From Eledone cirrhosa (lineage: Eukaryota), in NCBI GenBank assembly GCA_964016885.1, contig OZ024741.1:37696001-37760000 (forward strand): a stretch of 64,000 nt of DNA, given 5' to 3'. Shown one piece after another: positions 9,477 through 55,620 of this stretch. The notes beneath the pieces were generated by a model that saw only the letters and a program-made list of their open reading frames with translations, was not told the origin of the DNA and did no database searches. Position numbers and translations under genes: made by a program. Numbering within the stretch: the first letter of the stretch is position 1; every line of letters begins with the position of its first letter.

Positions 9477-9538
<62 letters not shown>

Positions 9539-12514
9539 CAAGAAAGAAGAGTGACATGGTTCGCTATACAATAAGGGCTTTATTCACATTGCTGACAATT
9601 ATTTCTTTGATCTGGTAGGTCTAGAGTTCGCTATCCGCCTAAGTGAACTGTCTATAACAATAGCCTGTTATCCCATATATATATATATATTTATTCACAC
9701 ACGCACATGCATAAAAATATATATATGTGTGTGTGAATGTATGTATATATATATATGTGTGTGTGTGTGTGAATGTGTATATATATATATGTACATATAT
9801 ATGTACACATACACACACATATAAATATATACATACACACACACACATATAAATATATGTATATACACACATACATATATATGTATTCCCTTCCCATCAC
9901 TGACAATAATATCCTTTATTGATGTTGATTTGTCTTATATATTTATCTATCTATTAAATTATTTATCTGTCTATCTATTTGTATATTTTTATTTTATGTG
10001 TGCCTAATAGTGTGGAATAATTGAGTGTATTGTGGAGGTTTATCCAGCTATTGTTATCACCAATATACATAGTCATACAGATAGTTGTAGGCCTGGCCAA
10101 TAGATGGAGATGGGAAATATAGAGAAGACTGCATTGAAACTCTCACTCTCTCTCTCTTTTGTCTATCTCCCTCTATATATATCTTTTGTATATCTCTCTC
10201 TCTCTCTCTCTTGTATACACATCACGCACTCTCAAGCATTTATATACTTGTATACATACACACACACTCAAACATTCATATACTTGTATACATATACACA
10301 CTCTCAAATATTCATATACTTGCATACATATACACACTCTCAAATATTCACATGCATGCACACACACATACACACAGACACCTATACACACTCAAAAATT
10401 CATATAGATGTAGGAGCACACAAACATGCACGCATCAGACATGCACCCATGCTCATACACACACACACACCCTCAAATATTCATCCACAAATTCACGACA
10501 ACGAATGTCCTCAAATACACATACACACACATGTAATCTTTCATATTCAGCCACAAATATACGGCTGTCAACACACACAGCCCACACACATTAAATACAT
10601 TACTATGGACACCAACGCATACAAGCAGGTGTACATATAAACACCTCCACACACATTGACAGATTTACTCAGAAATATGCTACTGTGAACATAAACATTA
10701 ATCCACAAATGCACTACTATGAGCCCACATCCACACACACATGCAGATACATTCACTCATAAATATATTACTATGAACACATATACACATGTCCATGATA
10801 CGTCCCTACACACACAAACATACATATGTACTTTTTATACTCTACATCATTCAAATATATTGCCTATATCACACACACATATGTCTGTCATTATAAATAT
10901 TTAATGAAAGTGTTAATGAGAAAGTTAGTTATATTACTAAATCCCTTCAAATTCTTGATTATTTTCAAAACTATTTGAAAAGCATGGGCAATGTCTTTCA
11001 TTAGAACTAAGGCAATGAAAGGGTTAATAATTGTTTCTACTTTTGGCACAAGGCCAGCAATTACCCAGTGCATTACTGGTACTTTATTTTATTGACCTCG
11101 GTGGGATTTGAACTCAGAATGGCAAGGGCCGTAACTCTATGCGTCAAGACATGGCGTCCGACCCCCTACCGATACTGCCATAATGAGAAAGTTTGTATTA
11201 CTAAATCCTTCCAAATTGTTGATTATTTTCAAAATTATATGAAAATTAAGGCAGTGTCTTTATTAGAAATATAGTAATATAAACGTTAATAAGTTAGTTT
11301 ATCTTACTAAACTTTCGCAAGTTTTTGAATATTTTCAAAATTATTTCAAAGCCATAGGCAGTATTTTTCCATAGAAATATAATGGTGAAAGAGTTAAGGA
11401 ACCACTAGATACTGTATGGTAGTAATCTGAAAGGACATAGATTGGGTACATCATTTTTCTTGTGTACAGTATCATTTGATAATGTTGCTATTGTTTTCTG
11501 TTCATTGTTTCCCAGTCACAAAAGGGGCCATTAATTTATTGGTCCTACAACACATCTATAATAGGTTTTTAGGTTACATCATCATCATTTAACATCCACT
11601 TTTCCACACTGGCATGGGTTACAAGAAGTTTCTATTTTCAGTGTTTTTCTTGTTTCTTACATTCTGAGTTTTAATCACACTGAACTCAAATCTGCTTTTC
11701 CTCTTTCCAGTATTAATAAAATAAAATACCAGTACTAGGGGTTGATGTAAATGGTTTATTCCTTCTCCAAATTGCTACCCTTGTGCCTAGATTAGAAACC
11801 ATTACCATCATATCACCATTTTTATGTTTTCTATACTAGAATAAGTCCTCACCTCTACAGAACCCCCTGTTAACTTTTTGCAAGGTTCAGTTACCTAAGA
11901 TCAACCATCATATCCTTTTTTAATTATTTCTTATATATATTTTTTATTCCTTTACATTTTTTTTTACTCAAAAGTGGGAGGGGTGGCAGTGCCTGTGCTG
12001 CTTTTCATGGCCTATGAAACTAGTGGGAGGGAGTGAGGTATACCCTCTTATCTATAGTACACAACTGTTAAATGAAATAATGATAAAGCTAAAATTATGA
12101 CACAACAAGCTCTATATATTTCTAGGACAATGATTAAAGCTATACAAAAACTAGTGTTTATATTCTTAGCTCCAACTGTAGATCTACTTTCTAGTCACCA
12201 TTCTCTCTCACCTTCCCAGCTAGAGGAAGAATGTCATTGGACATATCTAAACAAACATTACACTACAGAGCTGTTGTTCTCATTACAAGTGTCTTTTTAT
12301 TGATATGCTGTATATTGAGTATCTAAAGACATAATACACCCTGCACTCCCCCCTCCACACACATATATATGCCTCACTACCACCAATGTCAGGAAATATG
12401 ATCAATGATGAAGGTGATCAATCCTTCATCAATTTTGATGATGAACATTCAGTCAGTCAGTAAACTGAACAACCAACTTATGAATTGTGTTAGATATTGA
12501 ACATTCCACAGACA

Positions 12515-16132: not shown

Positions 16133-17215
16133 AACTAGTTGTGAACTCTTTAATCACACAGCCATACCTGTAAATAAGTTGTGAAGTGTATTCCTTAACC
16201 ACACAACCATACCTGTAAATAAGTTGTGAAGTGTACTCCTTAACCATACAGCCATACCTGTAAATAAGCTGTGAAGTGAACTCCTTAACCACACAGCCAT
16301 ACCTGTAAATAAGTTGTGAAGTGAACTCCTTAACCACACAGCCATACCTGTAAATAAGTTGTGAAGTGAACTCCTTAACCACACAGCCATACTTGTAAAT
16401 AAGTTGTGAAGTGTACTCCTTAACCACGCAGCCATACCTGTAAATAAGTTGTGAAGTGAACTCCTTAACCATACAGCCATACCTGTAAATAAGCTGTGAA
16501 GTGAACTCCTTAACCACACAGCCATACCTGTAAATAAGTTGTGAAGTGAACTCCTTAACCACACAGCCATACCTGTAAATAAGTTGTGAAGTGAACTCCT
16601 TAATCATACAGCCATACCTGTAAATAAGTTGTGAAGTGAACTCCTTAACCACGCAGCCATACCTGTAAATAAGTTGTGAAGTGTACTCCTTAACCACACA
16701 GCCATACCTGTAAATAAGTTGTGAAGTGAACTCCTTAATCATACAGCCATACCTGTAAATAAGTTGTGAAGTGAACTCCTTAACCACACAGCCATACCTG
16801 TAAATAAGCTGTGAAGTGAACTCCTTAACCACACAGCCATACCTGTAAATAAGCTGTGAAGTGAACTCCTTAACCACACAACCATACCTGTAAATAAGTT
16901 GTGAAGTGAACTCCTTAACCATACAGCCATACCTGTAAATAAGTTGTGAAGTGTACTCCTTAACCACGCAGCCATACCTGTAAATAAGCTGTGAAGTGAA
17001 CTCCTTAACCACACAGCCATACCTGTAAATAAGCTGTGAAGTGAACTCCTTAACCACACAGCCATACTTGTAAATAAGCTGTGAAGTGAACTCCTTAACC
17101 ATACAGCCATACCTGTACATAAATTGTGAAGTGAACTCCTTAACCATACAGCCATACCTGTACATAAATTGTGAAGTGAACTCCTTAACCATACAGCCAT
17201 GCCTGTAAATAAGTT
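16133..17215. repeat. 45-bp minisatellite, about 24 copies
   Basis: Unit ACCACACAGCCATACCTGTAAATAAGTTGTGAAGTGAACTCCTTA; accounts for the 368-aa repetitive ORF. Confidence 0.97.
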
Positions 17216-18756
17216 ATGGAAAATTTCATCTGAGCACTTATTTTTTTTCCATATTGTTAGAAGTTACTAAATTCTTTGACTCTAGGAATGTTTCTTTTTG
17301 TTGAAGAACATCACATCTAGTATACTCTACCACTGCATCTGCTGCTTTTTCAGCCACTATCTTTCACCTTTTTTGTTGATAAACTGCTTGAAATTACCCC
17401 TGATTCTATGATATAAAACTGTTTAAAAATATTTATATTTATTACTCTATATATGCTATTTTATTTTCATGGTAAAGGCTTTATCTCACATAATTATCTT
17501 ACATAATATTGAATCTATGAGATTTTGATATTATTTATTTTGAGAACAATACCTTAATGCCAGCATGAGTGGCTGGTAGCAGCCAGTTTGAACAGAAAGA
17601 GGTGAGGGAATTCTGGCCAGATACAGCCAGTTTAACTCTTCAAATTCTTGATTATTTTCTAAATGACTTAAAAATCATTCATAGGCAGTGTGTTTCAGAG
17701 TTAATGTAAATTACTGTATATACTCAAATATAAACTAACCCCACTATTTTATGTCTGAAATGGGAGAAAATACAAACCTTATTTACATTGAATTTGAAGT
17801 TGGTGAAAATCATCAAAATATTGATCCCGGATATAAGCCAACTCCATTCTACCATTGAGTTTTTTTTAATCATATATTCCTTGGCTTATATTTGAATATA
17901 CTTGGTATATTGTTGGGCTATTAAATATTTTCCATATTGCCATTGCCCACAGCTCAGATATATTAGTTATATATTTTGATGTTTCTTGGTATTGCATGAG
18001 ATATTTCAGCAACCTAATTATATTGAAATTTCTCGCAGGTTGTGGATGCCTATCATTACAACACTTGAATTGAAAAAGTAAAAATATAGTTGACTTCATT
18101 AGTCTACTCCTATCCTTGAATTTCTGAGAACTTAAGAGTAAGAATAGAGACAATAAATACACACACACACACACATGTATATCATATATATATATATATA
18201 TAATAATTTAATATACAAACTTGAGAACTGTCATTCGATGCTTCATAATAGGCGACAAGTTTCTTCACTCAATGATGCTATTTATATTCAGTGACTCTAC
18301 AAATCAAATATATGAAATTTATCTTTTCAAAAATGAAAGAAAATGCTTCAATTAGTTTTCGTTACATACCAGAAAAAATCTTGAGTTATCTTGAGCATGT
18401 TCTTATTAAGAAAATGATATCTTTAAAATGTGTTTAGTACAGAAACGAATTCTGCTGTAATGATATTTAAAATGGAAAACTGTTATCCTCTGAAGTCTTA
18501 AACAATAATAAAGATCTCACCTTGTATCAATACCCATGTTGAATGTGGATTTAGAATTAGGAATGAAAAATGTGTATATTAACCATTTTGAGACCAACCA
18601 ACTCAAAACCACTTTTGGTTCTATGAAATAATGTTACCTATTATAAAGAAATCTTCAAACATAGTTTGATATAAGAATATTTTCATGTGGTGCAAATACC
18701 ATCTTAATAATGAAATAGTTAATAAATTTGATAAATCCCTTCAAATTCTTCATTAA

Positions 18757-35699: not shown

Positions 35700-35865
35700 G
35701 TGGTCGAAACATCAATCAGTATGGTCGTGAATTCACTAATGGGCGCCCTCTACCTGACCATTTGAGAGTTCAGATTCTGCAGCTTGCTCTTCAAGGTGTC
35801 CGTCCATGTGAGATAAGCCGACAGCTACAAGTGTCGCATGGCTGTGTTAGCAAAATACTTAACAG
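35700..35865 (+). CDS. Paxbeta: Pax-beta exon 3, paired domain N-terminal (PAI) part
   Basis: AACAG| acceptor after a pyrimidine tract; 166 nt; translates [56 protein letters not shown]; donor AG|GTAAAA. Not present in the ORF track because it lacks a start codon. Confidence 0.96.
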
Positions 35866-38074
35866 GTAAAAGCATAATATATACCATTGAAATTTTTTTG
35901 CTATAAATGATCTTTGACTTTTTTTTCTATGCAGTTTCATAATCAATATTTGATACATTAATACGTTTCATCAGCACTGGGTTATGTGCTTAGGGCCTCA
36001 AGTAAAGAATGGTCTCATAGAGGTCCCCCCCCCCCCCCCCCGAAGTGCAGAATTTACAATAGACCTTGATGCAGTGTTGCAGCGCCACCCCTCCCTCCAT
36101 ATTCTTTACAGTTCTTAGAACTTCTAAAGTTCTCACTCCAGCCCTGCCTTTCATTACCATATTTCTAATAACAGGCACTGCCTATAATTTTCAAATAATT
36201 CTGAAAGTAGTCAAGAATTGGAGGGATTTAGGATTAGGATAGAAGTAATCCTCTCGTTATTCAGCTCATGTTTCGAAAATAATTTCACAAACATTCTGAC
36301 GTAAAATTATAATGGAAGTCTTTAGATGAATTTAAACACGTTAAATCAAATAGCTTTGTATAGAGTGGTTTTCTTGTCGTTTTGATAACAAAAGGGTTAA
36401 CTCGATTCTTTATTGATTATTAACTGAGTTAGATAATATTTCCAGCTAGTTACACAGTATCTAATATTTTTTAATACAATTCAATTTCTCTACAGTTTTT
36501 GTGGTGACAGATGTTGAATCGTACCAGATCCAGCTAGTCTGGGTCAGGCATGGAATATAAATGAAATATCTTGTAATATCAATGACTGTTGTTGCTAGTT
36601 ATTAGTTTAGTTCAGATGTGTTTTTACCCTTTCATTAGCATATTTCTAATAACAAAAGAAGAAAAAAACTGCCAAGGTTTTTCTATTAATTCTGAAAATA
36701 AAGAATTTGAAGGGGTTTTGTAATATAACTAACTTTTCCTGATTAAACTGGTGTTTGGAGTATAACTTAACAATGGTTTTAATTTAAATAAAGACACTAT
36801 AAAATAAGGCTTAGTATTATAGAACATGGGGTGGTTTCAGGAAGGTGGGTATCATAAGTGTTGATATTTCCAAACATTCCTGTGTGTCATTATAGGAAGT
36901 CTAGTAATAATGATTCAACAGTTCTTTCACCAAAACGAATTCCTATCCCTGTATATTGTAAGAAGCAACTGAAAAGGTTAGCACCAGGAAGGGCATTCAA
37001 CTGTAAAACATTGCCTCAACGTGGACCACATGATGAGAATGAAGGCTTGTGTGGAGCCCATAAGGCTAACTTCTGCTTTAGCAAGGAAAATGGCTTTAAA
37101 ACACTCGTTGAAGGAAGAAATTTCAAATTTGTTTTTTTATTGGTTGTAGTTTTTGGTTTAGAACTTCTCTAAATGACCATGTCTTTGACATAACTTGAGT
37201 CTGACTAATTTTCTTATCTCATGTAACTTCTAGTGTCAGCCTGGTGCAAAGCATTTTCTTTTCCTTGCTTTACTTACTTTTTTTTTTCTGTCTTTGTTTT
37301 CTTCTTCTTCTTCCTCTTCTTCAACCCACCTGACTGACCCCTATCACTTGAGAGAAACCATTACAGTCAGCACTGATGCATGGATTAATTACATCTAATG
37401 CCAATTGTGCACTGGAATTGCACTGATTAAACCGTCCAGCCCGGCTGAATCCTTTCAGGTGTAAGACGGATTATATATATATTATACACATACATTATAT
37501 ATATATATATATATAATGTTGTGTTTAAGTGTGTCTTCTTCCTCTATAATAAGTATATATTAGACACTGTTATTACAGCTGGCCTTAATCCTGCTTCTTA
37601 GGGTTGGCTGACAGCCTGTATTGTTGATCTGGCGTCTTTACCTTATATAGTTGTTATGTTCCGAGAGGGGAGTTGCTTAGCTGGCTGATATAATTTACCA
37701 TTCTAAGCTTGTGGTTTCTAAACATAACCAACCAACCAACCAACCAGTCAGCCAGCCAGCAGCAGGTTTGTTTTCTTTTTTTTTCTTTTAACTTTTAACA
37801 TTTAAAATTTCTACTTTTATTCTTCTCCTTTCTCCTGTTTAGTACTGAGATAAGTGTGTCAGCAAGAATTATTGTTTACTTTTATACACATACATAATGG
37901 ACTTCCACACAGTTTCTGTCTACCAAACTTCACACTCAAGGCATTGGTCAGCCAGAAGTTATAGTGGAAGACACTTGCCCAAGGAGCCACCGAACTGCAA
38001 ATGAAATGCTCCTTAATTACACAACCACTTTATTGCATGTTGTGGATGCATTTTATTATGTTATCAGCACTAAA

Positions 38075-38700
38075 ACTTTACAGAGTGTACTGGGTGCATT
38101 TTATCTTGCCACCAGCACTACCGCTTTAAAGAGTGTGCTAGGGGCATTTTATTGTGACACCAGCACTACCGCTTTAAAGAGTGTGCTAGGGGCATTTTAT
38201 TGTGACACCAGCACTACCGCTTTAAAGAGTGTGCTAGGGGCATTTTATTGTGACACCAGCACTACCGCTTTAAAGTGTGTGCTAGGGGCATTTTATTGTG
38301 ACACCAGCACTACCGCTTTAAAGTGTGTGCTAGGGGCATTTTATTGTGACACCAGCACTACCACTTTAAGTGTGTGCTAGGGGCATTTTATTGTGACACC
38401 AGCACTACCGCTTTAAGTGTGTGCTAGAGGAATTTTATTGTGACACCAGCACTACCGCTTTAAGTGTGTGCTAGAGGAATTTTATTGTGACACCAGCACT
38501 ACCGCTTTAAGTGTGTGCTAGGGGCATTTTATTGTGACACCAGCACTACCACTTTAAAGAGTGTGCTAGGGGTATTTTATTGTGACACCAGCACTACTAC
38601 TTTAAAGTGTGTGCTAGGGGCATTTTATTGTGACACCAGCACTACCGCTTTAAAGTGTGTGCTAGGGGCATTTTATTGTGACACCAGCACTACCATTTTA
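38075..38700. repeat. 47/48-bp minisatellite, about 13 copies
   Basis: Unit GAGTGTGCTAGGGGCATTTTATTGTGACACCAGCACTACCGCTTTAAA. Confidence 0.95.
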
Positions 38701-39176
38701 CTCAGTGTACTTCTCTAGTACATTCTTTACAGGGTGTTTTCTCAAGCATAATGTGATGTTATGTGTATGATGCATGGCATTATGATAGGAGTTTTATCTA
38801 ATATCATCTCATGGTTCATCAGTGTGTGTAAGGCTATACATTTCAGACAACTCTAAGAGAATATAAAGCGACCGTCCAGCCACACATGGGAGAGAGAATT
38901 CACAGCGTGCCTAGGGCAGTAACCAGTGGTCTCTGAGGGACGAACTGCTGGAAAGGGCAGCCCAAACCACTCAGAGAAGTGTGTTCAACCAAACAGAGAG
39001 AGAGGAAAGACTGTTATAAGGAGCGAAATATCACGATAAATTAACGGAGCCATAGGCTCTTGCTATTCCCTGTCAGTAATGTGCTCAAAGGAGAAGGAAT
39101 CCCGAGCCCTTTATAATACAATATGTAGAAAAGATAAATTAACGGAGCCATAGACTCTCGCTATTCTCTGTCAGTA

Positions 39177-41830
39177 TTCAGCAATCTGAGGTCTGTTCTC
39201 ACCACCTCTGCCCATGTTTTTCGTGGCCTACCTCTACCACGTCTTCCTTCAACTGGCATTTCCTGGCACTTCTTCACCCATCGGTCATCCTCCATGTGCA
39301 TCACATGTCCATACCACCGCAGTCTCCTCTCTCGCACACTACATTCTATCAACATATCCATGCCGGGTCGTTCACGCACATTGAAATTGCACATCCAACG
39401 GAGCATGCTTGCCTCATTTCTCTCTAGCCGTCGCATATCCTCTGCAGTTGTTGCCCATGTCTCACTACCATGCAGCATCGCGCTCCTCACACAGGCATCA
39501 TATAACCGGCCTTTCATACGCAGGGAGAAACCCTTCTTCGTCAGCAGAGGAAGCAGCTCCCTAAACTTCTTCCAGCCCATCCTTATTCTAGATACTATGG
39601 CCTCGGAACACCCCCCTCCCATGCTAATCTGATCTCCTAGGTACCGGAATCTATCCACAACTTCTATAGCACCCGCCTGCATTTGAAAAATGTGTCTATC
39701 AATGCGACTTCTACTGTCTAATTTCCCTGTACATCTACTGCATACGTATTTCTCCCTACCTGTTAGTTTGCCTGCTATCCCTCTACATCTCTCGTGTACC
39801 CAGGATCTGCATTGTGTGCATTTTATAGAATTTATGCCAGTTCCTTTTCTGCATATCGAACATGGCCATTTCCCTGATGGAATTAGAGTTTTGTCCTCTT
39901 TTCTACTCATCAACACTTTTTTCTTAGCTAGGTTCACTCTCAGTCCTCTTGCTTCCAACTGCTGTTTCCATAGCCAGAATTTATTCTCTAGCTCCTCTAA
40001 TGATTCTTCTATAAGAACCAGATCGTCAGCATAGAGAAGTTCCTAAGGACAGCCAGTCTTAAACTCCTCTGTTATGGCTTGGAGGACTATAATGAACAAG
40101 AGCAGGCTGAGGACTGAACCTTGATGTACTCCTACTTGTATCTGGAATTCCTCATTAAACTCCATTCCCACCCTCACTTTACTGACAGCACCTCTGTACA
40201 AAGTTTGCACTGTCCTCACAATCCATTCCTCAACACCTAGTTTCCTTAGGGACCACTAGGTGACAGATCGGGGTACCCTATCAAAGGCCTTCTCTAGGTT
40301 AACAAAGGCTAAGTATAGTGGCTTATTCTTCTCTGAGAACCTCTCTTGTAATTGTCTCACCAAGAAGAGGGCATCTGTTGTACTTTTCCCAGGCACAAAA
40401 CCAAACTGCATCTCATCTAGTTTCACCCTTTCTCTAATTAGTTGTCCTAAAATCCTTTCTGCCACTTTCATAACCTGATCCATCAGCTTTATGCCCCTAT
40501 AATTGCTCCTCTCCAGAGCATCCCCTTTACCTTTGTAGCAATTTATGAGAATACTGCTGCACCAGTCTTTGGGTATGACACCACCATATATAGCCTGATT
40601 GATGATGTGTGCAACCAGTTTAGTGCCTATGTCCCCTGATGCCTTCAGCATCTCAGCAACTATCCCCGACAGTCCAGCAGCCTTACCATTTTTCATTTCC
40701 TTAATCGCCTCTTGGACCCTATATTCGTCAATATCAATAGCTGGTCCCTCTGTCGGATCTACTGAAGGTAATTTCTCTCTCTCCCATTCTTTCTGCACAT
40801 TCATCAGTCTTTCATAATGACATTTCCAGGCCTCCTTTTTCTGATCATTCGTGACACTAAGTACACCGGCATCATTCCGGACACATTTATCTCCAGCAAC
40901 ATCCTGATTTGCATTGACACACTGCCTTGCAATGTGGAACACTGCACGTCTCTGATCTTCCCGTCGCAGAACATTGGCAAATCTCCTACTCTCAGCCTCC
41001 CTGCCTGCTAAGTACACCTGACGTCTAGCTTCTTTCTTAGTGGCTGTATATCCTTCTCTACTCCCACCCTTTTTCCAAGCCTTCCATGCTAGTCTTTTGT
41101 CTCTAATGGCCTTATCTACTGTGCTGTTCCACCACCAGGTCACTCTCTGTCTGGTTGGAGCTCTGCTCCAGCCACAAGTTTCATCAGTAGCCTGCAGTAA
41201 GTTATCACGTAAGAAATTCCAGTTATTATCTATGTCATACGTCTCTAAATCGTCTTCTTTTTCGTCATACACATCTTGAAGGGCTTTCCTAAATTTGTAT
41301 TTTAGTGAAAGGTCTTTTAGCTTCCACACCTTCCTGTATGTCTCATTCCATCTCTTGCTTACTGAGATATCACTAACGACTAACCTGTGCTGAGGGGTAC
41401 ATTCTTCCCCAGGGTATGCCTTGGTATTTGACACCATCTGTCTGTCCCGCTGCCTAACTAGTAAGAAGTCAATCTGCCTTATGTGCTCGCCTGATTTGTA
41501 GGTTATTAGGTGGTTGGCAGGTTTCTGGAAGTTAGTGTTGCAAATAGTCAGTGTACTTGCATCACAAAATTCAAGAAGTCTCCTTAATTTCTTGAACCAT
41601 AACCATGCTCACCATGTACCCCAGTGTAACCATCCTGGAGCTGTCCAACATGACCATTGAAGTCCCCTACTAGCATAACGATGTCTCCATCCTCTGTCAT
41701 TGCGGTTGTTTGTAAAAGTTGCTCTTAAAAGCAGTCTTTCTCTTCTTTGCCTAGGCCTGCTTGGGGAGCATAGGCAGAGATGATTGTCAGTAGTCTCCTG
41801 CCTACAACTAATCTAATCTTAATTATTCGA
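39177..41830 (-). mobile_element. RTE-clade LINE, disrupted copy: AP endonuclease, linker, RT, Cys/His finger and C-terminus; 3' tail missing
   Basis: Translates IISAYAPQ, GDFNGHVG, PQHRLVV, NYRGIKL, QFGFVPGKSTTDA, KAFDRV, QGSVLS, YADD and GRPRKTW, with several nonsense changes. The 5' end abuts a (TA)n tract. Confidence 0.95.
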
Positions 41831-42030
41831 TTATTAACTTGATATATGTATATATATATATGTTATATAATATATGTATATATATATTATATAATATGTG
41901 TATATATATATATGTATTATATAATATATGTGTATATATATATATGTATTATATAATATGTATATATATATATTATATGATATATATATATAATGTATAA
42001 TATATTTTATATATATATATATCTTATATA

Positions 42031-42088
<58 letters not shown>

Positions 42089-42375
42089 TATATATACGTT
42101 ATTCCGGGTTGAATCGGAGGTAACCACAGTAAGTAAGGTACTCAATACATAGCAGAGTATAACAGTTATAATATAGATGAGATTCTACAGGACTAGGACT
42201 GTTTCATTCATTAGAAATCATCAGATATATATATATGAACCATCTAAACACTCTCATTTTAGTCTGTTGGATTATGATTAGCTATATATATATATATATA
42301 TATAGCTCTGTTAATATAGAGACAAAAGAGCTTAGTTAGGTTTGAGATCAAATAACATATGCTAGACTCCATTGG

Positions 42376-42410
<35 letters not shown>

Positions 42411-44110
42411 CATACATATATGCATGTGTATACATGTATATACACTTATGTAAAGACACATTCAAGACCCACTATTATTTGATTAAACCAGTAGTGGGGA
42501 TAATATGAAGCTTAATTGTTATTCTGTTAAATCTTCTTCATATAGCTTTCTCAGAAAGAGAGAGAGAGAGGGAGTAGGGTTGGGGGGACAAACAATGAAT
42601 TGTAGAGGATGATGGGAGCAGAGCCAATGATGTTTCAAAGTGAAGGAGGCCAGTTAATCTGAATAAGAATTGTCTCAGACCATAACAGTTTATCCAAGCC
42701 ATGTCAGCATGGAAAATGATGTGTTACCTTGTGGTAAAAAAAATCACCATCCAGCATTTTAAGGTCATTTTCCCTGCAAAATCATGGCTTGGTCTTGTGG
42801 GCCAATAGACCTAATCATACACACCATGGGTTCCTTCTTGAAGCAGTATTTTATGATTAGCTACAGCCGCCTTGTATGACATGCAGCAATAAAATGCTCC
42901 TATTTCAAACCAAGCACATATTCAGATTTTGATTCATTTAATGTCATTTAAAATTAGAGTGGAAGGTTTGTCCATAGGTATGTGTTCCATGATTTTTGGA
43001 AAATTAGGTATGGGTTCCACTGCCAAAAAATGTTTTGAGGACCACTACCATTGAGGAATTGACAATGTACCAGTCAGCAGAGTTACAAAGATCTTGTAGC
43101 AAACAAGCACATGTGGATGTAGAACTATTTTAGTTGCATCTTATAATATGTAGGGTATGGTGTATCTATTCTAAACTGGAGGAATACACACAGCCTCTTT
43201 GAGGTAAAAAAGACTGCCAGAAATACAGTTTTCTAATTTAGGCACAAGGCCAGCATTTTGGGGAGATGAAGAGATAGGTTGATTATATTGACTCCAGAGT
43301 TTGTCTGGTACTTCATTTTATCAGCCTTAGAAGAATGAAAGGCAATGTTGACCTTGGGTAGATTTGAACTCAACATGTAAAAAAAGAACAGAACAAATAC
43401 CACAAAGTATTTTGCCAGCTGCACTAACAATTCTGCCAGTCCAGCACAAAAAAAATGATAGAAACACAATTTTCTTGAGACATCCAGCTTCTCGTTTGTT
43501 GTGTTCTGTATTTTTATCTTTTATCTGGATGTGATGTTAAACATGTCTATGCCTGTTTCATGACAGACACTGCAATTAATCAACTGGGGTGGTGGTATGT
43601 GAAATGTTCTGTGAAAGGTAATCCACCACATCTCTTCTGTTATTTCTATGTAGAAGAGCCTGTAAGTTATCCTTTACTGATAAATCTGGCAGGACTTATA
43701 GAAGGCAGATAGTGTTCAACTGTATAGAATTGTGATGTAATCTTTCATAAAGGCTAGTACAAAAACATACTTACACTCTCATATCTTCATATGCACACAT
43801 CAAAATGGTGCTTGCGTGCTATCAATTCATGTCTGTGTGTGTAAATACATGTCTGTGTCTGTGTGTATGTAGATGATAATGATGGTGATATATATATGTA
43901 TGTGTGTGTGTATGTATGTTTGTATATATATAGAGAGAGAGGGGGTTATATAGAAAAGACTTCTACAGGATCAGAACTATTTCATATTTTCATATGGATA
44001 AAACAGTTCTAGTCCTGTAGAAGCCTTTTCTATATAAACCTCTGTCATCACTCTACATACATATTGAGTACCTTATTTAATGTGGTTACCCCTGACTCAA
44101 CTCAGGAGCA

Positions 44111-44141
<31 letters not shown>

Positions 44142-44271
44142 AGATAATAAGTTATCATTTAAGGTAATCCAGTTAGATGTGAGTACTCTGTACTGTGGAT
44201 AGTTTTAATGTACGGTGTTGTTTGACTCGCGAGTTTACAAGAATACTTATGCAGGTTATTCTTGGAGTAAT

Positions 44272-44600
44272 AATAGTGAAAGAGTGAAGAATAACATGGT
44301 TGGCTGTACAAAAAGGGTTTTATTTACAGTATTAACAATTGTTTCATTGATCAAATAAGTCTAAAGGCCGCTAATCATTAGAAATTATGTCACCCGACCT
44401 TAAATACGGTGGGTGTCTCTGATCAAATCATCGGAATACTGATGATTTGATCAGAGACACCCACCGTATTTAAGGTCGGGTGACATAATTTCTAATGATT
44501 AGCGGCCTTTAGACTTATTTGATCAATGAAACAATTGTTAATACTGTAAATAAAACCCTTTTTGTACAGCCAACCATGTTATTCTACACTTTTTCACTAT
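44272..44600. repeat. Near-perfect ~160-bp-arm palindrome containing hammerhead-like motifs (Penelope-like pLTR remnant)
   Basis: Arms are reverse complements around an 8-nt spacer GGAATACT. The minus strand reads CAGTATT-CCGATGA-TTTGATCA...TGATCAAT-GAAAC-AATT-GTT-AATACTG-TAAATAAA. Confidence 0.85.
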
Positions 44601-44800
44601 ATATAAGGGAGAGAAAGAGAGCGATTTTTGAATTTAATATAGTTTCTACCTTCCAATTTCACTCACATTTCTGTAGTAGAAGATACTTGCCCAAGGTACC
44701 ATGTAGTGGAATAGAGCCTGAAATGACACGGTTGCAAAATGAACTTCTTAACCGCAATTGTGATACTTTTACCTTGTATGTGTGTTTGTGTGTATGCACG

Positions 44801-44835
<35 letters not shown>

Positions 44836-46244
44836 GTGTCTGTGTGTTTGTGTGTATGCACGCACACACATACACATATATATATATGATATGTGTGTGT
44901 GTTTATGTATGTATGTGTGTGTATGGTTGGTTTATCTGATGTCAGGTGTCATGCTTGACATGCAGTGAGAGAGAGAGTGAAAGAGGGATAGAGAGAGACT
45001 ATGGATTGATGGAAATGTATATATACTGACTAAAGTGTCAGGTAAATAGTGAGAGACAAATGAACACACACACACATGCACACCTACACATACACCCCCA
45101 CACATGCACATCCACACATGTGTCATATGCTAAGGAAACTGCAAATATTTGAGGTTTTGTACCAGTTACATTTTCTTTTTACCTTTTCTTTGAATGGTAC
45201 ATACATATATAAAAATATATATTCCCTCTCTCAAATCCCTGTTTTATTTAATACAATATTTGTAGTGTTAAAACGTGAGTTAAATTATAATGATTCATTT
45301 CTATATATTTAGATATCGACCTCAGTAATCAAGTCTGGTACATTGACTATCCATCTTCATTTGTTGAGCCACAAATTTACTAGCCATAAACCACATAAAT
45401 TCTGTCCAGTCTACCACAAGGTTAACAACAAATTACTCGTACAAATACACACACACATATAGTGGGGAATTTAGATTGATTTAATACCAGAGGTACAAAA
45501 GCCAACAATTTTCCAATCTTGTTTCCTATAAACTGCTGAAAAAAATACTATGCTATGTGGGTGGATAATGACAACTAAAACAAAACATTACTTTGTTTTG
45601 TTTTATTTGCCATTCTTTGCCCTTTATGTATTTCTACCATTTTCTGAAATTTATCAGTCATTTATTAGATATATACATACACAGCTGTGTGTGTGTGTAT
45701 GCATGCGTGCACACATACACACACACAGCTGTTCACTGTTACTGAGACCATCCATCTTGTGTTGGCTCTGTTACTTGGAGGATTTTGAAAATGTATTAAG
45801 GAAATAACTGCCGACCTTCTGTTATCTTTGAAATGGTCTGGAAACATTCACTGTTATGTATTTTACATTATAACCTCAGCACCAATGTTGGGAAGATAAA
45901 CAACATTTCACTGTAAGCTTTCATAACTTACCTAACCTTGGTAATATTCTAAATAGCCTTAAAACCTAGTTTCTGGAACAGACATTGTCAACATTTGAGA
46001 TTGATTCAACTCTTAACATTCTGTAATGATTTAACAGAAAATATTTAAAAATATGTTTATTAATTCAAATTTTTGTTGTGCCTTTATAAATAATTTTCGT
46101 TGTACCTTTGTAAATGAATATTTGTGAAAATTTACAGTAAACTAAAGTAAAGATTTGAATTCTTAATGTAATGCAGTCATAGTGGTGTTTTTTACTTTTC
46201 AAGAATGTCTTGTTAAAGCAGTTTATTATGGAAGAAGACATTAA

Positions 46245-46458
46245 CCCTTTAGCATTCAAACTGGCCATATCCAGCCAGAATTCTCTCATCTCTTTCTGTT
46301 CAAACCAGCTGTAACCAGCCATTCATACTGATTTTAAGGTATTGTTGTCAAAATAAATATCAAAATCTGATAGATTCAACATTATGTGAGATAATTATGG
46401 TAAATCCTTTACCATGAAAATACAATAGTATATAGAGAGTAATGTAAATGCCATAGGG
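46245..46458 (-). mobile_element. piggyBac-type MITE family A
   Basis: TTAA|CCCTTTAGCATT...AATGCCATAGGG|TTAA. Confidence 0.85.
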
Positions 46459-47670
46459 TTAAATGAAGTTTCAACTAATCTTCAGCTGCTCTTATTTCTT
46501 TATATCTCGAGAACAATTATTTTTATTGCTGGCTTGTCAAGAGATGGACATGAATGTTTGTGGCCCTGTGGTTAAAGTGCTGCTCATAAATGAATGAACC
46601 TAGGTTCAATTCACAGACCAGGTAGTGTGTTATGTCTTTAACACTTGATATCAACCCTGCCAAAACTGTTTCTACAAAACCACCTATTTTAAGGTGTTTC
46701 TATTTAAAATGAAATCCTCCAACAGATCTGTATTCTAAGTTACTATTTTAGCAATGAAATAATAATTTTTAGTAAATCCGTCAAAATTTTTTCCGTCAAA
46801 TTAATTAATTAATTAAAATAGAGTGTAGTTCATTAGATATGGTCGACTAAATCCCTTCAATCTGGTGTCATAACATGGCTGCAACATGCACGACTGAAAC
46901 CTGTAATACAAAAAGAATACATAATATTTCCAGAGGGTATTTCAAATATTCTGAATAATTTTGGGTTTTGTTTTTGTGTTCACAGGAAGAAGGGTAGCAT
47001 CTATGACAGGTTTCAGGGTCTCTGAGTTTGGTGTGAGAAATGTATCGTCAGACTGGGTACCTGTTTGAAAATTCTTACAACAGAATGGATTTCTTTAAAA
47101 GCTAGGTGTGGACGTTAAACTGGGGAATGAACTATAGATGATATCAGGGAAAGTAAGATTTACAAGTGGACAGAATTTAAAATTAGAGAAGTTGAAATTG
47201 ATTTTGGTGCGTTGATGCAACCAATTTAGATTTGTTGACAGATATGAATTTAATATATGATGATATAATGTTGATAGATCTCTCGCAAATATCATGGTTA
47301 TAAGAGTTATTTTTTTGTTTTTTCTGTTTAGTCAGGGAGGGAAGGTCAGTCCTCGGGACCCTTTTCAGGGCTCTAAGAGTAGTGGGAGGGAGAGGAGATG
47401 ATGATACCCTCAGATGAGAGACCTATTCTGATTACTTACAACAGAGTGAACTCTGCTAAAGGCACCCAAGGTACAGATCAAAGAAGACACTGTCAACAGA
47501 AGAACAAAATAAATGGACAGATAAGGAGTAAAAAATGTGTTTTGCCCAAAAGCTTTTGTTTCTAAGATAAAAGCATGTAAATGCCATTATAAATGTTCAC
47601 ATGGGAAATGTAAGGTGTTTGTTTCACCTGTTTTAGGTGTTTCTGACTGTACTTTTCTTTATTTTTTTAG

Positions 47671-47808
47671 GTATCGGAAAACAGGCAGTATCAACCCTGG
47701 TCAGATTGGTGGCAGTAAACCAAAGGTGACTACACCAGATGTAGTCAACAAGGTGCGGCAATATAAAAACGAAAACCCTCAGATGTTTGCTTGGGAAATC
47801 AGGCAAAA
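47671..47808 (+). CDS. Paxbeta: Pax-beta exon 4, paired domain linker and start of RED subdomain
   Basis: TTTTTAG| acceptor; [46 protein letters not shown]; donor AA|GTAAGT; phase 2 at both ends. Confidence 0.96.
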
Positions 47809-49155: not shown

Positions 49156-49395
49156 ATAGTGAAAGAGTGAAGAATAACATGGTCAACAGTACAAAAAGGG
49201 TTTTATTTACAGTATTAACATTTGTTTCATTGATTAAGTTGTCTAAAAATTGCTAATCGCTTGAAGTTGGGTCACTCAATTTTAAATACAATGTATGCCT
49301 AATCAAATCATCGGAAAAACTCAGTTTTTCTGATGATTTGATTAGGCATACATTGTATTTAAAATTGAGTGACACAACTTCAAGTGATTAGCAAT
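49156..49395. repeat. Second copy of the hammerhead-bearing palindromic element, embedded in (TA)n
   Basis: Outer arm nearly identical to that of the 44272 copy; ~75-bp inverted arms centred near 49322. Confidence 0.8.
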
Positions 49396-50535: not shown

Positions 50536-50893
50536 CACTTTCTGTGTTTTAACTCTTAACTTCCACTTGATATTTGAGGTAATTTATAAATTAGCATATA
50601 CCTATGTTACTTGATGTTGCATATATATATGTGTGTGTATATATATGTATGTGTGTGTATATATGTATGCATATATATAATCATCATCATCATCATCGTT
50701 GTTTAATGTCTATCTTCCACACTAGACGATAAACGATGATGATGATGATTATATATATGCATACATATATATACACATACATACATATATACACACACAT
50801 ATATATATATGCAACATCAAATAACAGGTATATGCTAATTTATAAATTACCTCAAATATCAAGTGGAAGTTAAGAGTTAAAACACAGAAAGTG
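50536..50893. repeat. Foldback inverted duplication (~165-bp arms, ~30-bp spacer)
   Basis: CACTTTCTGTGTTTTAACTC...ATCATCATCG is mirrored by CGATGATGAT...GAGTTAAAACACAGAAAGTG. Confidence 0.9.
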
Positions 50894-54360: not shown

Positions 54361-54364
<4 letters not shown>

Positions 54365-55620
54365 CCTTTGATAGGGTACCCCGATCTGTCATCTGGTGGT
54401 CCCTAAGGAAGCTAGGTGTTGAGGAATGGCTTGTGAGGACAGTGCAAACTTTGTACAGAGGTACTCTCAGTAAAGTCAGGGTAGGAATGGAGTTTAGTGA
54501 GGAATTTCAGATACAAGTAGGAGTACATCAGGGTTCGGTCCTCAGCCCGCTCTTGTTCATTATAGTCCTCCAAGCCATAACAGAGGAGTTTAAGACTGGC
54601 TGTCCATGGGAACTTCTCTATGCTGATGATCTGGCTCTTATAGCAGAATCAGTAGAGGAGCTAGAGAATAAATTCCGGCTATGGAAACAGCAGTTGGAAG
54701 CAAGAGGACTGAGAGTAAATCTAGCTAAGACAAAAGTGTTGATGAGTAGAAAAGAGGACAAAACCCTGATTCCGTCAGGGAAATGGCCATGTTCGATATG
54801 CAGAAAAGGAACTGGCATAAATTCTATAAAATGCACACAATGCAGGTCCTGGGTACACAAGAGATGTAGCGGGATAGCAGGCAAACTAACAGGTAGGGAG
54901 AAATATGTATGCAGTAGATGTACAGGGAAATTAGACAGTAGAAGTCGCACTGATAGACACATTTTTCAAATGCGAGAGGGCGCTATAGAAGTGGTGGATA
55001 GCTTCCGGTACCTAGGAGATCAGATTAGCATGGGAGGGGTGTGTTCCGAGGCCATAGTATCTAGAATAAGGACGGGTTGGAAGAAGTTTAGGGAGCTGCT
55101 TCCTCTGTTGACGAAGAAGGGTTTCTCCCTGCGTACGAAAGGCCGGTTGTATGATGCCTGTGTGAGGAGCGCGATGCTGCATGGTAGTGAGACATGGGCA
55201 GCAACCGCAGAGGATATGCGACGGCTGGAGAGAAATGAGGCAAGCATGCTCCGTTGGATGTGCAGTGTAAATGTGCGTGAATGACCCAGCATAAATGTGT
55301 TGAGAGAGAAACTGTGTCTGAGAGGGATAGAATGTAGTGTACGGGAGAGGAGACTGAGGTGGTATGGACATGTGATGCGCATGGAGGAGGACCGATGGGT
55401 GAAGAAGTGCCAGGAAATGCCAGTTGAAGGAAGACGTGGTAGAGGTAGACCACGAAAAACATGGGCGGAGGTGGTGAGAACAGACCTCAGATCATTGAAG
55501 CTCACGGTGGAGATGACGAGGGACCGTGACGAGTGGAGAGATGCTGTGCTGAATAAGACCCGTCCCACCCTTGCAAGCAGGGAAAAGCGGACGTAAAATG
55601 ATGATGATGATGATGATGAT
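54361..55620 (+). mobile_element. RTE-clade LINE, 5'-truncated young copy with intact 3' end and (GAT)n tail
   Basis: ORFs 54325-55284 and 55297-55596 share one frame, split by a single CGA>TGA stop. Contains LYADDL and ends GGGAAAAGCGGACGTAAAATGATGATG. Flanked by (TA)n on both sides. Confidence 0.96.

Follow-up and report, generated by a model that had tools for sequence, protein, structure and literature searches.

The near-perfect palindrome in a Pax intron of Eledone cirrhosa most probably consists of two 5'-truncated terminal repeats (pLTRs) of a Hydra-clade Penelope-like element (PLE), placed head to head in (TA)n. To judge from its sequence, the repeat contains a hammerhead of type I with a helix II domain of ~80 nt that covaries across families, and this hammerhead is likely to cleave weakly, as a dimer or with an element protein. 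The parent element, the architecture, the copy number, the covariation, the position of the 5' ends and the one-sided tail were observed directly. The element and its insertion architecture are both ordinary. The long helix II is real, widespread and present beyond the Pax locus, and it represents an abundant structural variant of the PLE hammerhead that is apparently undescribed. The window analyzed is a stretch of 64,000 nucleotides (contig OZ024741.1, positions 37,696,001 to 37,760,000), to which the coordinates below refer.

The palindrome and its parent element

The arms of the palindrome (44273-44432 and 44441-44600) measure 160 nt each, are spaced by 8 nt and differ at two positions, 44282 and 44287. 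Both strands were folded, and either of them forms a single hairpin (-272 to -280 kcal/mol, z of about -45 to -50). Paired-box exons are located on the plus strand at ~35708-35872 and ~47671-47808, with contiguous profile positions. Therefore, the palindrome lies in a Pax intron, as had been claimed from the letters, and its hammerhead-bearing arm is antisense to the Pax gene. The element reaches further to the left, to ~44142, with a tail that is confined to the minus arm, and (TA)n is present at both outer ends. The following features were annotated.

35873..47670, plus strand: Pax intron containing the element, bounded by paired-box exons (limits approximate)
44142..44442, minus strand: primary 5'-truncated pLTR copy of a Hydra-clade PLE, family A1, stem I through tail
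44142..44272, minus strand: tail, ~130 nt here (~150 nt in the family), on a single arm, ending in (TA)n; ORF leader in tandem copies
44435..44441, minus strand: stem I 5' strand, 7 nt; putative first bases of the element transcript
44428..44434, minus strand: core CCGAUGA, U4C variant (U4 in subfamilies A2 and A3 and in most other families)
44346..44427, minus strand: extended helix II domain, 82 nt, with a U-U base, a 9-bp proximal helix, an asymmetric internal loop and two distal helices covarying across families
44334..44345, minus strand: GAAAC, 2-bp stem III with palindromic AAUU loop, and GUU triplet, with the scissile bond predicted between 44334 and 44333
44327..44333, minus strand: stem I 3' strand
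44319..44324, minus strand: AAUAAA
44441..44600, plus strand: inverted second copy, core G5 to short 3' end, then (TA)n; without the stem I 5' strand
44433..44445, no strand assigned: head-to-head junction with 2-nt microhomology, creating the plus-strand CUGAUGA at 44439-44445 (compared with the family's upstream letters)

All parts of a type I hammerhead that the sequence-only reading had listed were found on the minus strand. Its description of stem II, a long helix closing an insert of ~60 nt, holds for the helix and the insert, the 82-nt spacer being composed of a U, a 9-bp helix including one G-U pair, a 62-nt insert and a second U; the base of the helix had to be corrected, as it is a U-U mismatch and the usual G-C pair is absent. 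The plus arm had been described as a canonical core without the 5' strand of stem I. Indeed, it shows CUGAUGA at 44439 and no stem I partner, but the core itself is a product of the junction. Stem I opens the minus arm, from its first bases onwards, whereas the plus arm begins at core G5, two bases being common to both; in the plus-strand CUGAUGA, the C and the U derive from the antisense of the other arm. This canonical motif is a junction chimera and not a second ribozyme. With two pLTR copies lying head to head, as had been suspected, the architecture is that of the known inverted-pLTR insertion, which is ordinary for PLEs.

The copy in the Pax intron is likely inert: Pax pre-mRNA would fold as a 160-bp hairpin and corresponds to the strand without stem I. 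The insertion itself is without demonstrated function, and no empty-site allele was seen among the contigs aligned to the locus. Three family-rare letters (44394, 44408, and 44412), present in both arms, jointly make an alternative 8-bp hairpin within the insert. On the minus strand at 44142-44290, a conserved AUG past AAUAAA opens a short hydrophobic frame over the short end and the tail, which was seen by eye in families A and C.

A genome search with a single arm returned 2,520 candidates, of which 40 were scored and showed 91-95% identity (self excluded), and the 28-mer from GAAAC to AAUAAA has 1,355 exact genome matches, against 0 in the control. Upstream in longer copies, a UTR of ~700 nt is followed by a GIY-YIG-type frame and then by RT, in agreement with the proposed Penelope-like origin. 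A search for such linked frames had been suggested, and they were found: among 20 copies ascertained by their endonuclease, the hammerhead segment lies 360-850 nt downstream of the GIY-YIG frame on the same strand in 16, whilst one has an inverted upstream segment alone and three have no segment. RT motifs and then the endonuclease occur on one strand in loci L037, L208, and L428, in frames interrupted by stops or shifts. A complete pLTR-ORF-pLTR order with the motif in both repeats was found in L428 (family E) and L220 (family I), and in L244 the tail continues for 52 nt to the AUG of the ORF.

The Hydra clade is defined by RWK, DKT, CxCX5C, CxxC, and CxH features (PMC8557442, available part). 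RWK (N-terminal) and DKT in place of DKG are present in families D, E, and I; in the family A copy L034, DKT is present and the RWK region is degenerate. Families A and E show the CxCX5C linker, CxxC, and CxH around a conserved E and N, with the absence of CCHH judged by eye, and the region of GxKF/Y, a motif that the Hydra clade does not conserve, reads GFK or GYK in D and A copies and GFR and GFT in E and I. The clade assignment is based on these motifs and on 254 homologues of ~700 aa that share them. Pfam gave no match, and a query with the endonuclease for longer proteins found none. Insertion in (TA)n was seen at both ends of the Pax-intron copy and in most fetched copies. A Neptune or Nematis PLE was rejected, as the CX2-5CxxC linker and CCHH are lacking and the linker is CxCX5C.

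Since longer copies contain RT and GIY-YIG with Hydra-clade protein motifs, the segment in the Pax intron is identified as the truncated 3' end (pLTR) of an autonomous Hydra-clade PLE and not as a retrozyme. The earlier suggestion of a non-autonomous, retrozyme-like family had to be abandoned in view of the GIY-YIG linkage in 16 of 20 copies, the tail running into the ORF start, and the pLTR-ORF-pLTR order in a sister family. That such a family spreads as small self-cleaved circles is highly improbable and already largely refuted. In its favor, the majority of the copies are short and devoid of an ORF, and the type I hammerhead has a palindromic loop III; however, the 5' truncations form a continuous series up to RT and endonuclease, the ends are unpermuted at the cleavage site, and among the 100 long-spacer matches listed, opposite-strand pairs were common and there was no array of at least three short units. 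Retrozymes are recognized by tandem arrays in which each unit has a hammerhead and an ORF is missing; no such arrays were found.

The extended helix II domain

Genome-wide collection of copies, which had been proposed, yielded 11,564 matches to the core pattern with a spacer of 70-100 nt, against 31 in the control. The numbers were 2,105 (control 23) for spacers of 39-69 nt, a class that contains deletion derivatives and a few unrelated matches, and 2,917 (control 36) for spacers of 8-38 nt. The long-spacer class comprises more than 10 families. In families A, B, C, D, E, H, I, and K, the motif is preceded in the same orientation by an endonuclease with 30-80% identity to that of family A; for F, G, J, L, and M, such a linkage was not demonstrated. 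One more distant family has an ordinary 11-nt spacer at the equivalent position. In an endonuclease tree built from genome copies and database proteins and without reference Hydra proteins, families A, B, C, D, E, H, and K group at 100/99 with one unassigned row, whose sole hammerhead candidate has an 81-nt spacer. As family I falls outside this group, the tree does not establish a single origin of the long arm. Relatives of family A were found in contigs of a second organism and the family E motif in contigs of two others; thus, the long form extends beyond the Eledone cirrhosa assembly. The family E motif at L208:4230-4471 is 95-100% identical in the contigs of these two, which hints at transfer or at recent activity in common. 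In a metagenome scan, 117 matches to the pattern were found, none of which passed the stem I and helix II filter, and they were taken as chance.

The covariation set consisted of 12 hand-picked families, each represented by one natural copy and most found via the core pattern. In this set, 36 of 36 innermost stem I pairs are formed (1.86 of 3 with swapped partners), as are 72 of 84 proximal helix II pairs (3.88 of 7 with swapped partners); no permutation of partners out of 100,000 reached the observed sum for stem I or helix II, and the mean identity of the inserts is 53%. By this measure, stem I and helix II covary across the 12 families. When the named structure was scored on an alignment of 36 rows, 93 cells showed two-sided changes vs. 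34 in shuffles (0/500), but two of five measures, the count of two-sided pairs (56/500) and the pair types (433/500), did not exceed the shuffles. Hence, the covariation that had been asked for is seen for stem I and proximal helix II and in the two-sided cells, and fails in these two measures. An unconstrained consensus fold recovered 11 distal pairs, seven of them compensatory, and missed stems I, III, and proximal II, which are those misregistered by MAFFT. Families C and G lack several basal pairs of helix II.

Among 21 copies examined, 18 form all three innermost stem I pairs and three fail one, and the insert folds with a z of -1.6 or lower in 17. The core CUGANGA, GAAA, and NUH site of a type I hammerhead are found, with U4 in 15/21 copies and the known U4C variant in the Pax-intron copy, and three helices surround the core with covariation, helix III being 2 bp with a palindromic loop. 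The G10.1-C11.1 pair of this type is U-U in the Pax-intron copy; position 10.1-11.1 is G-C in 2/21, paired in 6/21, and mismatched in 15/21 copies. The 8-mer of stem III is palindromic in 13 of 14 cases, as had been noted for the Pax-intron copy, with loops AAUU, ACGU, and AUAU. In 17 copies of family A, deviation from the column majority amounts to 4.4% in the core, 8.3% in the insert, and 9.6-13.8% in the flanks, figures that carry some ascertainment bias; the expectation that the core is conserved above the flanks was borne out.

General pairing between leader and insert, as in a pseudoknot, was not conserved (6,721/20,000). By eye, in families F and I [L184:354-502 (+) and L198], 5-6 nt of the stem I leader are complementary to an unpaired stretch of helix II and may form a pseudoknot with it. 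The insert of family F is a three-way junction. In another Hydra-type family [L059 (-), ~650-770], 81 nt separate a candidate core from a downstream 4-bp hairpin adjoining GAAAC, which may represent a discontinuous variant.

We infer that the extended helix II is a selected structural domain, involved in protein binding or in the control of cleavage. That more than 10 families keep a large helix II with covariation points to selection beyond the catalytic core, and the domain offers a deletable handle for testing why PLEs retain hammerheads.

The following comparisons refer to the available parts of the cited papers. Hydra-clade PLEs (PMC8557442) resemble the present elements in the C-terminal endonuclease, RWK, DKT, CxCX5C, CxxC, CxH, and the (TA)n target, in a type I hammerhead located close to the 3' end, where helix II frequently has a U-U base, and in an inverted 5'-truncated copy with a one-sided tail. 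However, the published Hydra hammerheads, including the sole octopus family, have a helix II of 3-7 bp and loops of 3-10 nt, whereas the spacer here measures 75-97 nt and has covarying distal helices; also the tail (~150 nt vs. 30-40 nt) and the element (~3.5 kb vs. <3 kb) are longer here. The minimal PLE hammerheads (Cervera and de la Pena 2014, PMC4209133) are likewise of type I, are located in pLTRs, have a small palindromic helix III and a predicted dimer, and occur as opposite-strand pairs 100-700 bp apart. Their largest helix II, which those authors regard as exceeding the usual size, is 7-8 bp with a conserved G10.1-C11.1, which is mostly absent here, where the domain is ~80 nt. Non-LTR retrozymes (PMC7229834, bioRxiv 10.64898/2026.07.22.740005) also contain type I hammerheads, and that of the axolotl Amex2 retrozyme has the same U-U base and a 2-bp stem III with a tetraloop and cleaves better as a dimer, but retrozymes are tandem arrays without an ORF (PMC7229834), whereas here we deal with the truncation product of an ORF-bearing element. 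A longer loop 2 of 29-35 nt, the maximum in the published table, is found in the PLE-X1 hammerheads of spike mosses, which are also Penelope-like (PMC8557442 supplement); it is under half the length seen here and occurs in single families of plant elements without an endonuclease. The earlier remark that the extended stem II was not recognized from described families agrees with the shorter helices II in PMC8557442 and PMC4209133. In the parts of the literature examined, the long form is absent from described families, although a study of variant PLE hammerheads (Lunse et al. 2017) may list long ones.

Rfam searches around the locus gave no hammerhead in 82 matches (E up to 10), just hairpin-like microRNA models below the cut-off, and 0 matches in six loci of other long-spacer families. 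As descriptor and Rfam searches cap the length of helix II, similar families may be missed elsewhere.

Putative catalytic competence

We consider it reasonably probable that the family motif is catalytic, as a dimer or with the assistance of a protein. In the family of the Pax-intron copy, the core deviates from the consensus at two points, U4C and the U-U base. U4C is the majority form, present in 65/100 among the family A subfamily matches listed, and recurs in short-spacer families. CpG decay was rejected as the sole account of the U4 copies, since 12-13 of 20 loci belong to two subfamilies with their own diagnostic changes and ~7 are decay-like. In a viroid hammerhead, U4C lowered activity in vitro without abolishing it (PMC3088659). 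A U-U at the base of helix II occurs in active natural hammerheads, and an axolotl ribozyme with this base showed 22% cleavage as a monomer and more as a dimer (PMC7229834, available part); it is also common in the published Hydra hammerheads (PMC8557442 supplement). In all 14 cases, the predicted energy of the active monomer fold exceeds the minimum by 2.3-5.9 kcal/mol.

Alternatively, the motif may have the same origin and no longer be catalytic, being kept as a folded recognition or dimerization signal for the element protein. We regard this as rather doubtful. The U4C change, the 10.1-11.1 mismatch in 15/21 copies, A9U in a D subfamily, and the failure of 5' ends to accumulate at the cleavage site would all be consistent with it, as is the lack of effect of ribozyme mutants on in vitro insertion of another PLE (PMC11167929, available part). 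Yet, catalytic positions and the GUH triplet are kept across families whose endonucleases are 30-80% identical, the cleavage triplet is restricted to GUU, GUC, and GUA (as the search pattern demands), and U4C and U-U variants are active elsewhere (PMC3088659, PMC7229834). A motif that still cleaves, if weakly, is the reading we prefer.

5' ends, tails and proposed insertion mechanism

For the mapping of 5' ends, 91 copies were chosen by the motif downstream of the cleavage site; 18 of these reach at least 300 nt upstream, and the other 73 were analyzed. In 27/73, the 5' end lies within -14..+3 of core C3, where a uniform distribution predicts 3.9, and in 1/73 it lies within 2 nt of the cleavage site; this BLAST mapping may hold one or two artifacts from palindromic partners. 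A TATA box is present ~32 nt above the cluster in families A and C, and TATA + 31 lands on stem I in families E and H. In family C, 7/24 of the 5' ends fall at -11..+3, and its TATA box is shifted likewise. Transcription would, then, begin at stem I, ~32 nt below the TATA box, and with such a start the ribozyme would constitute the first 115 nt of the RNA.

In several families, a YAG acceptor-like site coincides with the presumed start, and the cluster of 5' ends could in principle mark a 3' splice site instead. A pyrimidine tract and YAG are found inside the 5' strand of stem I in families A, B, D, and J, and the intron of Drosophila Penelope ends at helix I (PMC4209133, available part). This explanation is nevertheless quite unlikely, because several copies retain the CAG that would be intronic, no common upstream exon was seen, and families C and K are without AG, yet C clusters with TATA and Inr-like spacing. 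We therefore retain a transcription start as the probable cause of the cluster.

Head-to-head inverted pLTRs, a tail at a single end, a TATA box with an Inr-like site, and microhomology joins have been described for PLEs in the available literature. Of 49 head-to-head pairs in the fetched loci, 46 are tailed on one arm and not on the other, whereas 48% would be expected from the tail frequency (102/258 ends). In the mechanism that we propose, the endonuclease would nick both (TA)n strands, and two cDNAs would begin at two internal start sites, one giving the short end and the other the tail end; both would run off uncleaved RNA at its 5' end, and microhomology would join them. By analogy, this run-off model agrees with in vitro work on the Anolis Poseidon element (Frangieh et al. 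2024, PMC11167929; available part), in which two internal RT start sites define and bound the tail, the target is AT-rich, both strands are extended, uncleaved RNA serves as the template, and the ribozyme is protein-assisted. Poseidon differs in belonging to another clade and in having its ORF start inside its short helix II, whereas the ORF here starts ~200-270 nt downstream of the ribozyme. Two insertion signatures that can be counted, 5' ends located where stem I begins and a tail confined to one of the two arms, allow this recent in vitro model to be tested in a further clade.

A palindrome would also arise if a single nucleic acid primed itself or folded back, a model published for the Penelope elements of rotifers (PMC3846280, available part), and several features of the Pax-intron copy match it: its arms are 99% identical to each other vs. 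95% to the best other fetched copy, the three family-rare letters are common to both, and a small hairpin is possible at the junction. However, we consider it unlikely, as the arms are nearer to each other than to another copy in just 8/31 pairs, in two pairs the arms are distinguished by 9 and 11 common variant sites, and the single tailed arm in 46/49 pairs fits two start sites. In a noisy test for one vs. two templates, 3/27 pairs reached the criterion. In L005 and L022, the arms of one insertion carry different subfamily variants, which hints at two RNA templates or later conversion.

A tentative and, as a whole, rather improbable scenario can be outlined. A Hydra-clade lineage may have turned helix II into an 80-nt functional domain at the start of the transcript, which would bind the element protein or pair two RNAs and so decide between cutting and decapping of an RNA and its preservation as an intact template for paired two-strand insertion. 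This form would be the dominant hammerhead form in the genome and invisible to current descriptors, and counts of animal hammerheads would consequently be underestimated.

Several other repeats are present in the window. A second, smaller head-to-head palindrome close by, at 43937-44100, seems to represent the 3' end of a different Penelope-like family whose hammerhead has a short spacer, and other copies elsewhere show CUGAUGA upstream. A head-to-head pair of family B, with a shortened plus arm, is located in the next Pax intron (49156-49392), and a truncated family C copy with a GUC site adjoins an inverted tail fragment at 9530-9645 on the minus strand. The palindrome at 50536-50893 has arms of ~180 bp that are 89% identical and contain microsatellite sequence, and falls outside the hammerhead families searched. 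A LINE-type element with RT and PHD-finger matches, interrupted by stops, lies within the Pax gene at 39164-41608 (minus strand); an inverted 1.1-kb partial copy of it with 92% identity is found at 54361-55492 (plus strand), and the pair flanks the palindrome in the Pax gene. Finally, a tandem array with a unit of 45/90 nt extends over 16141-17218.
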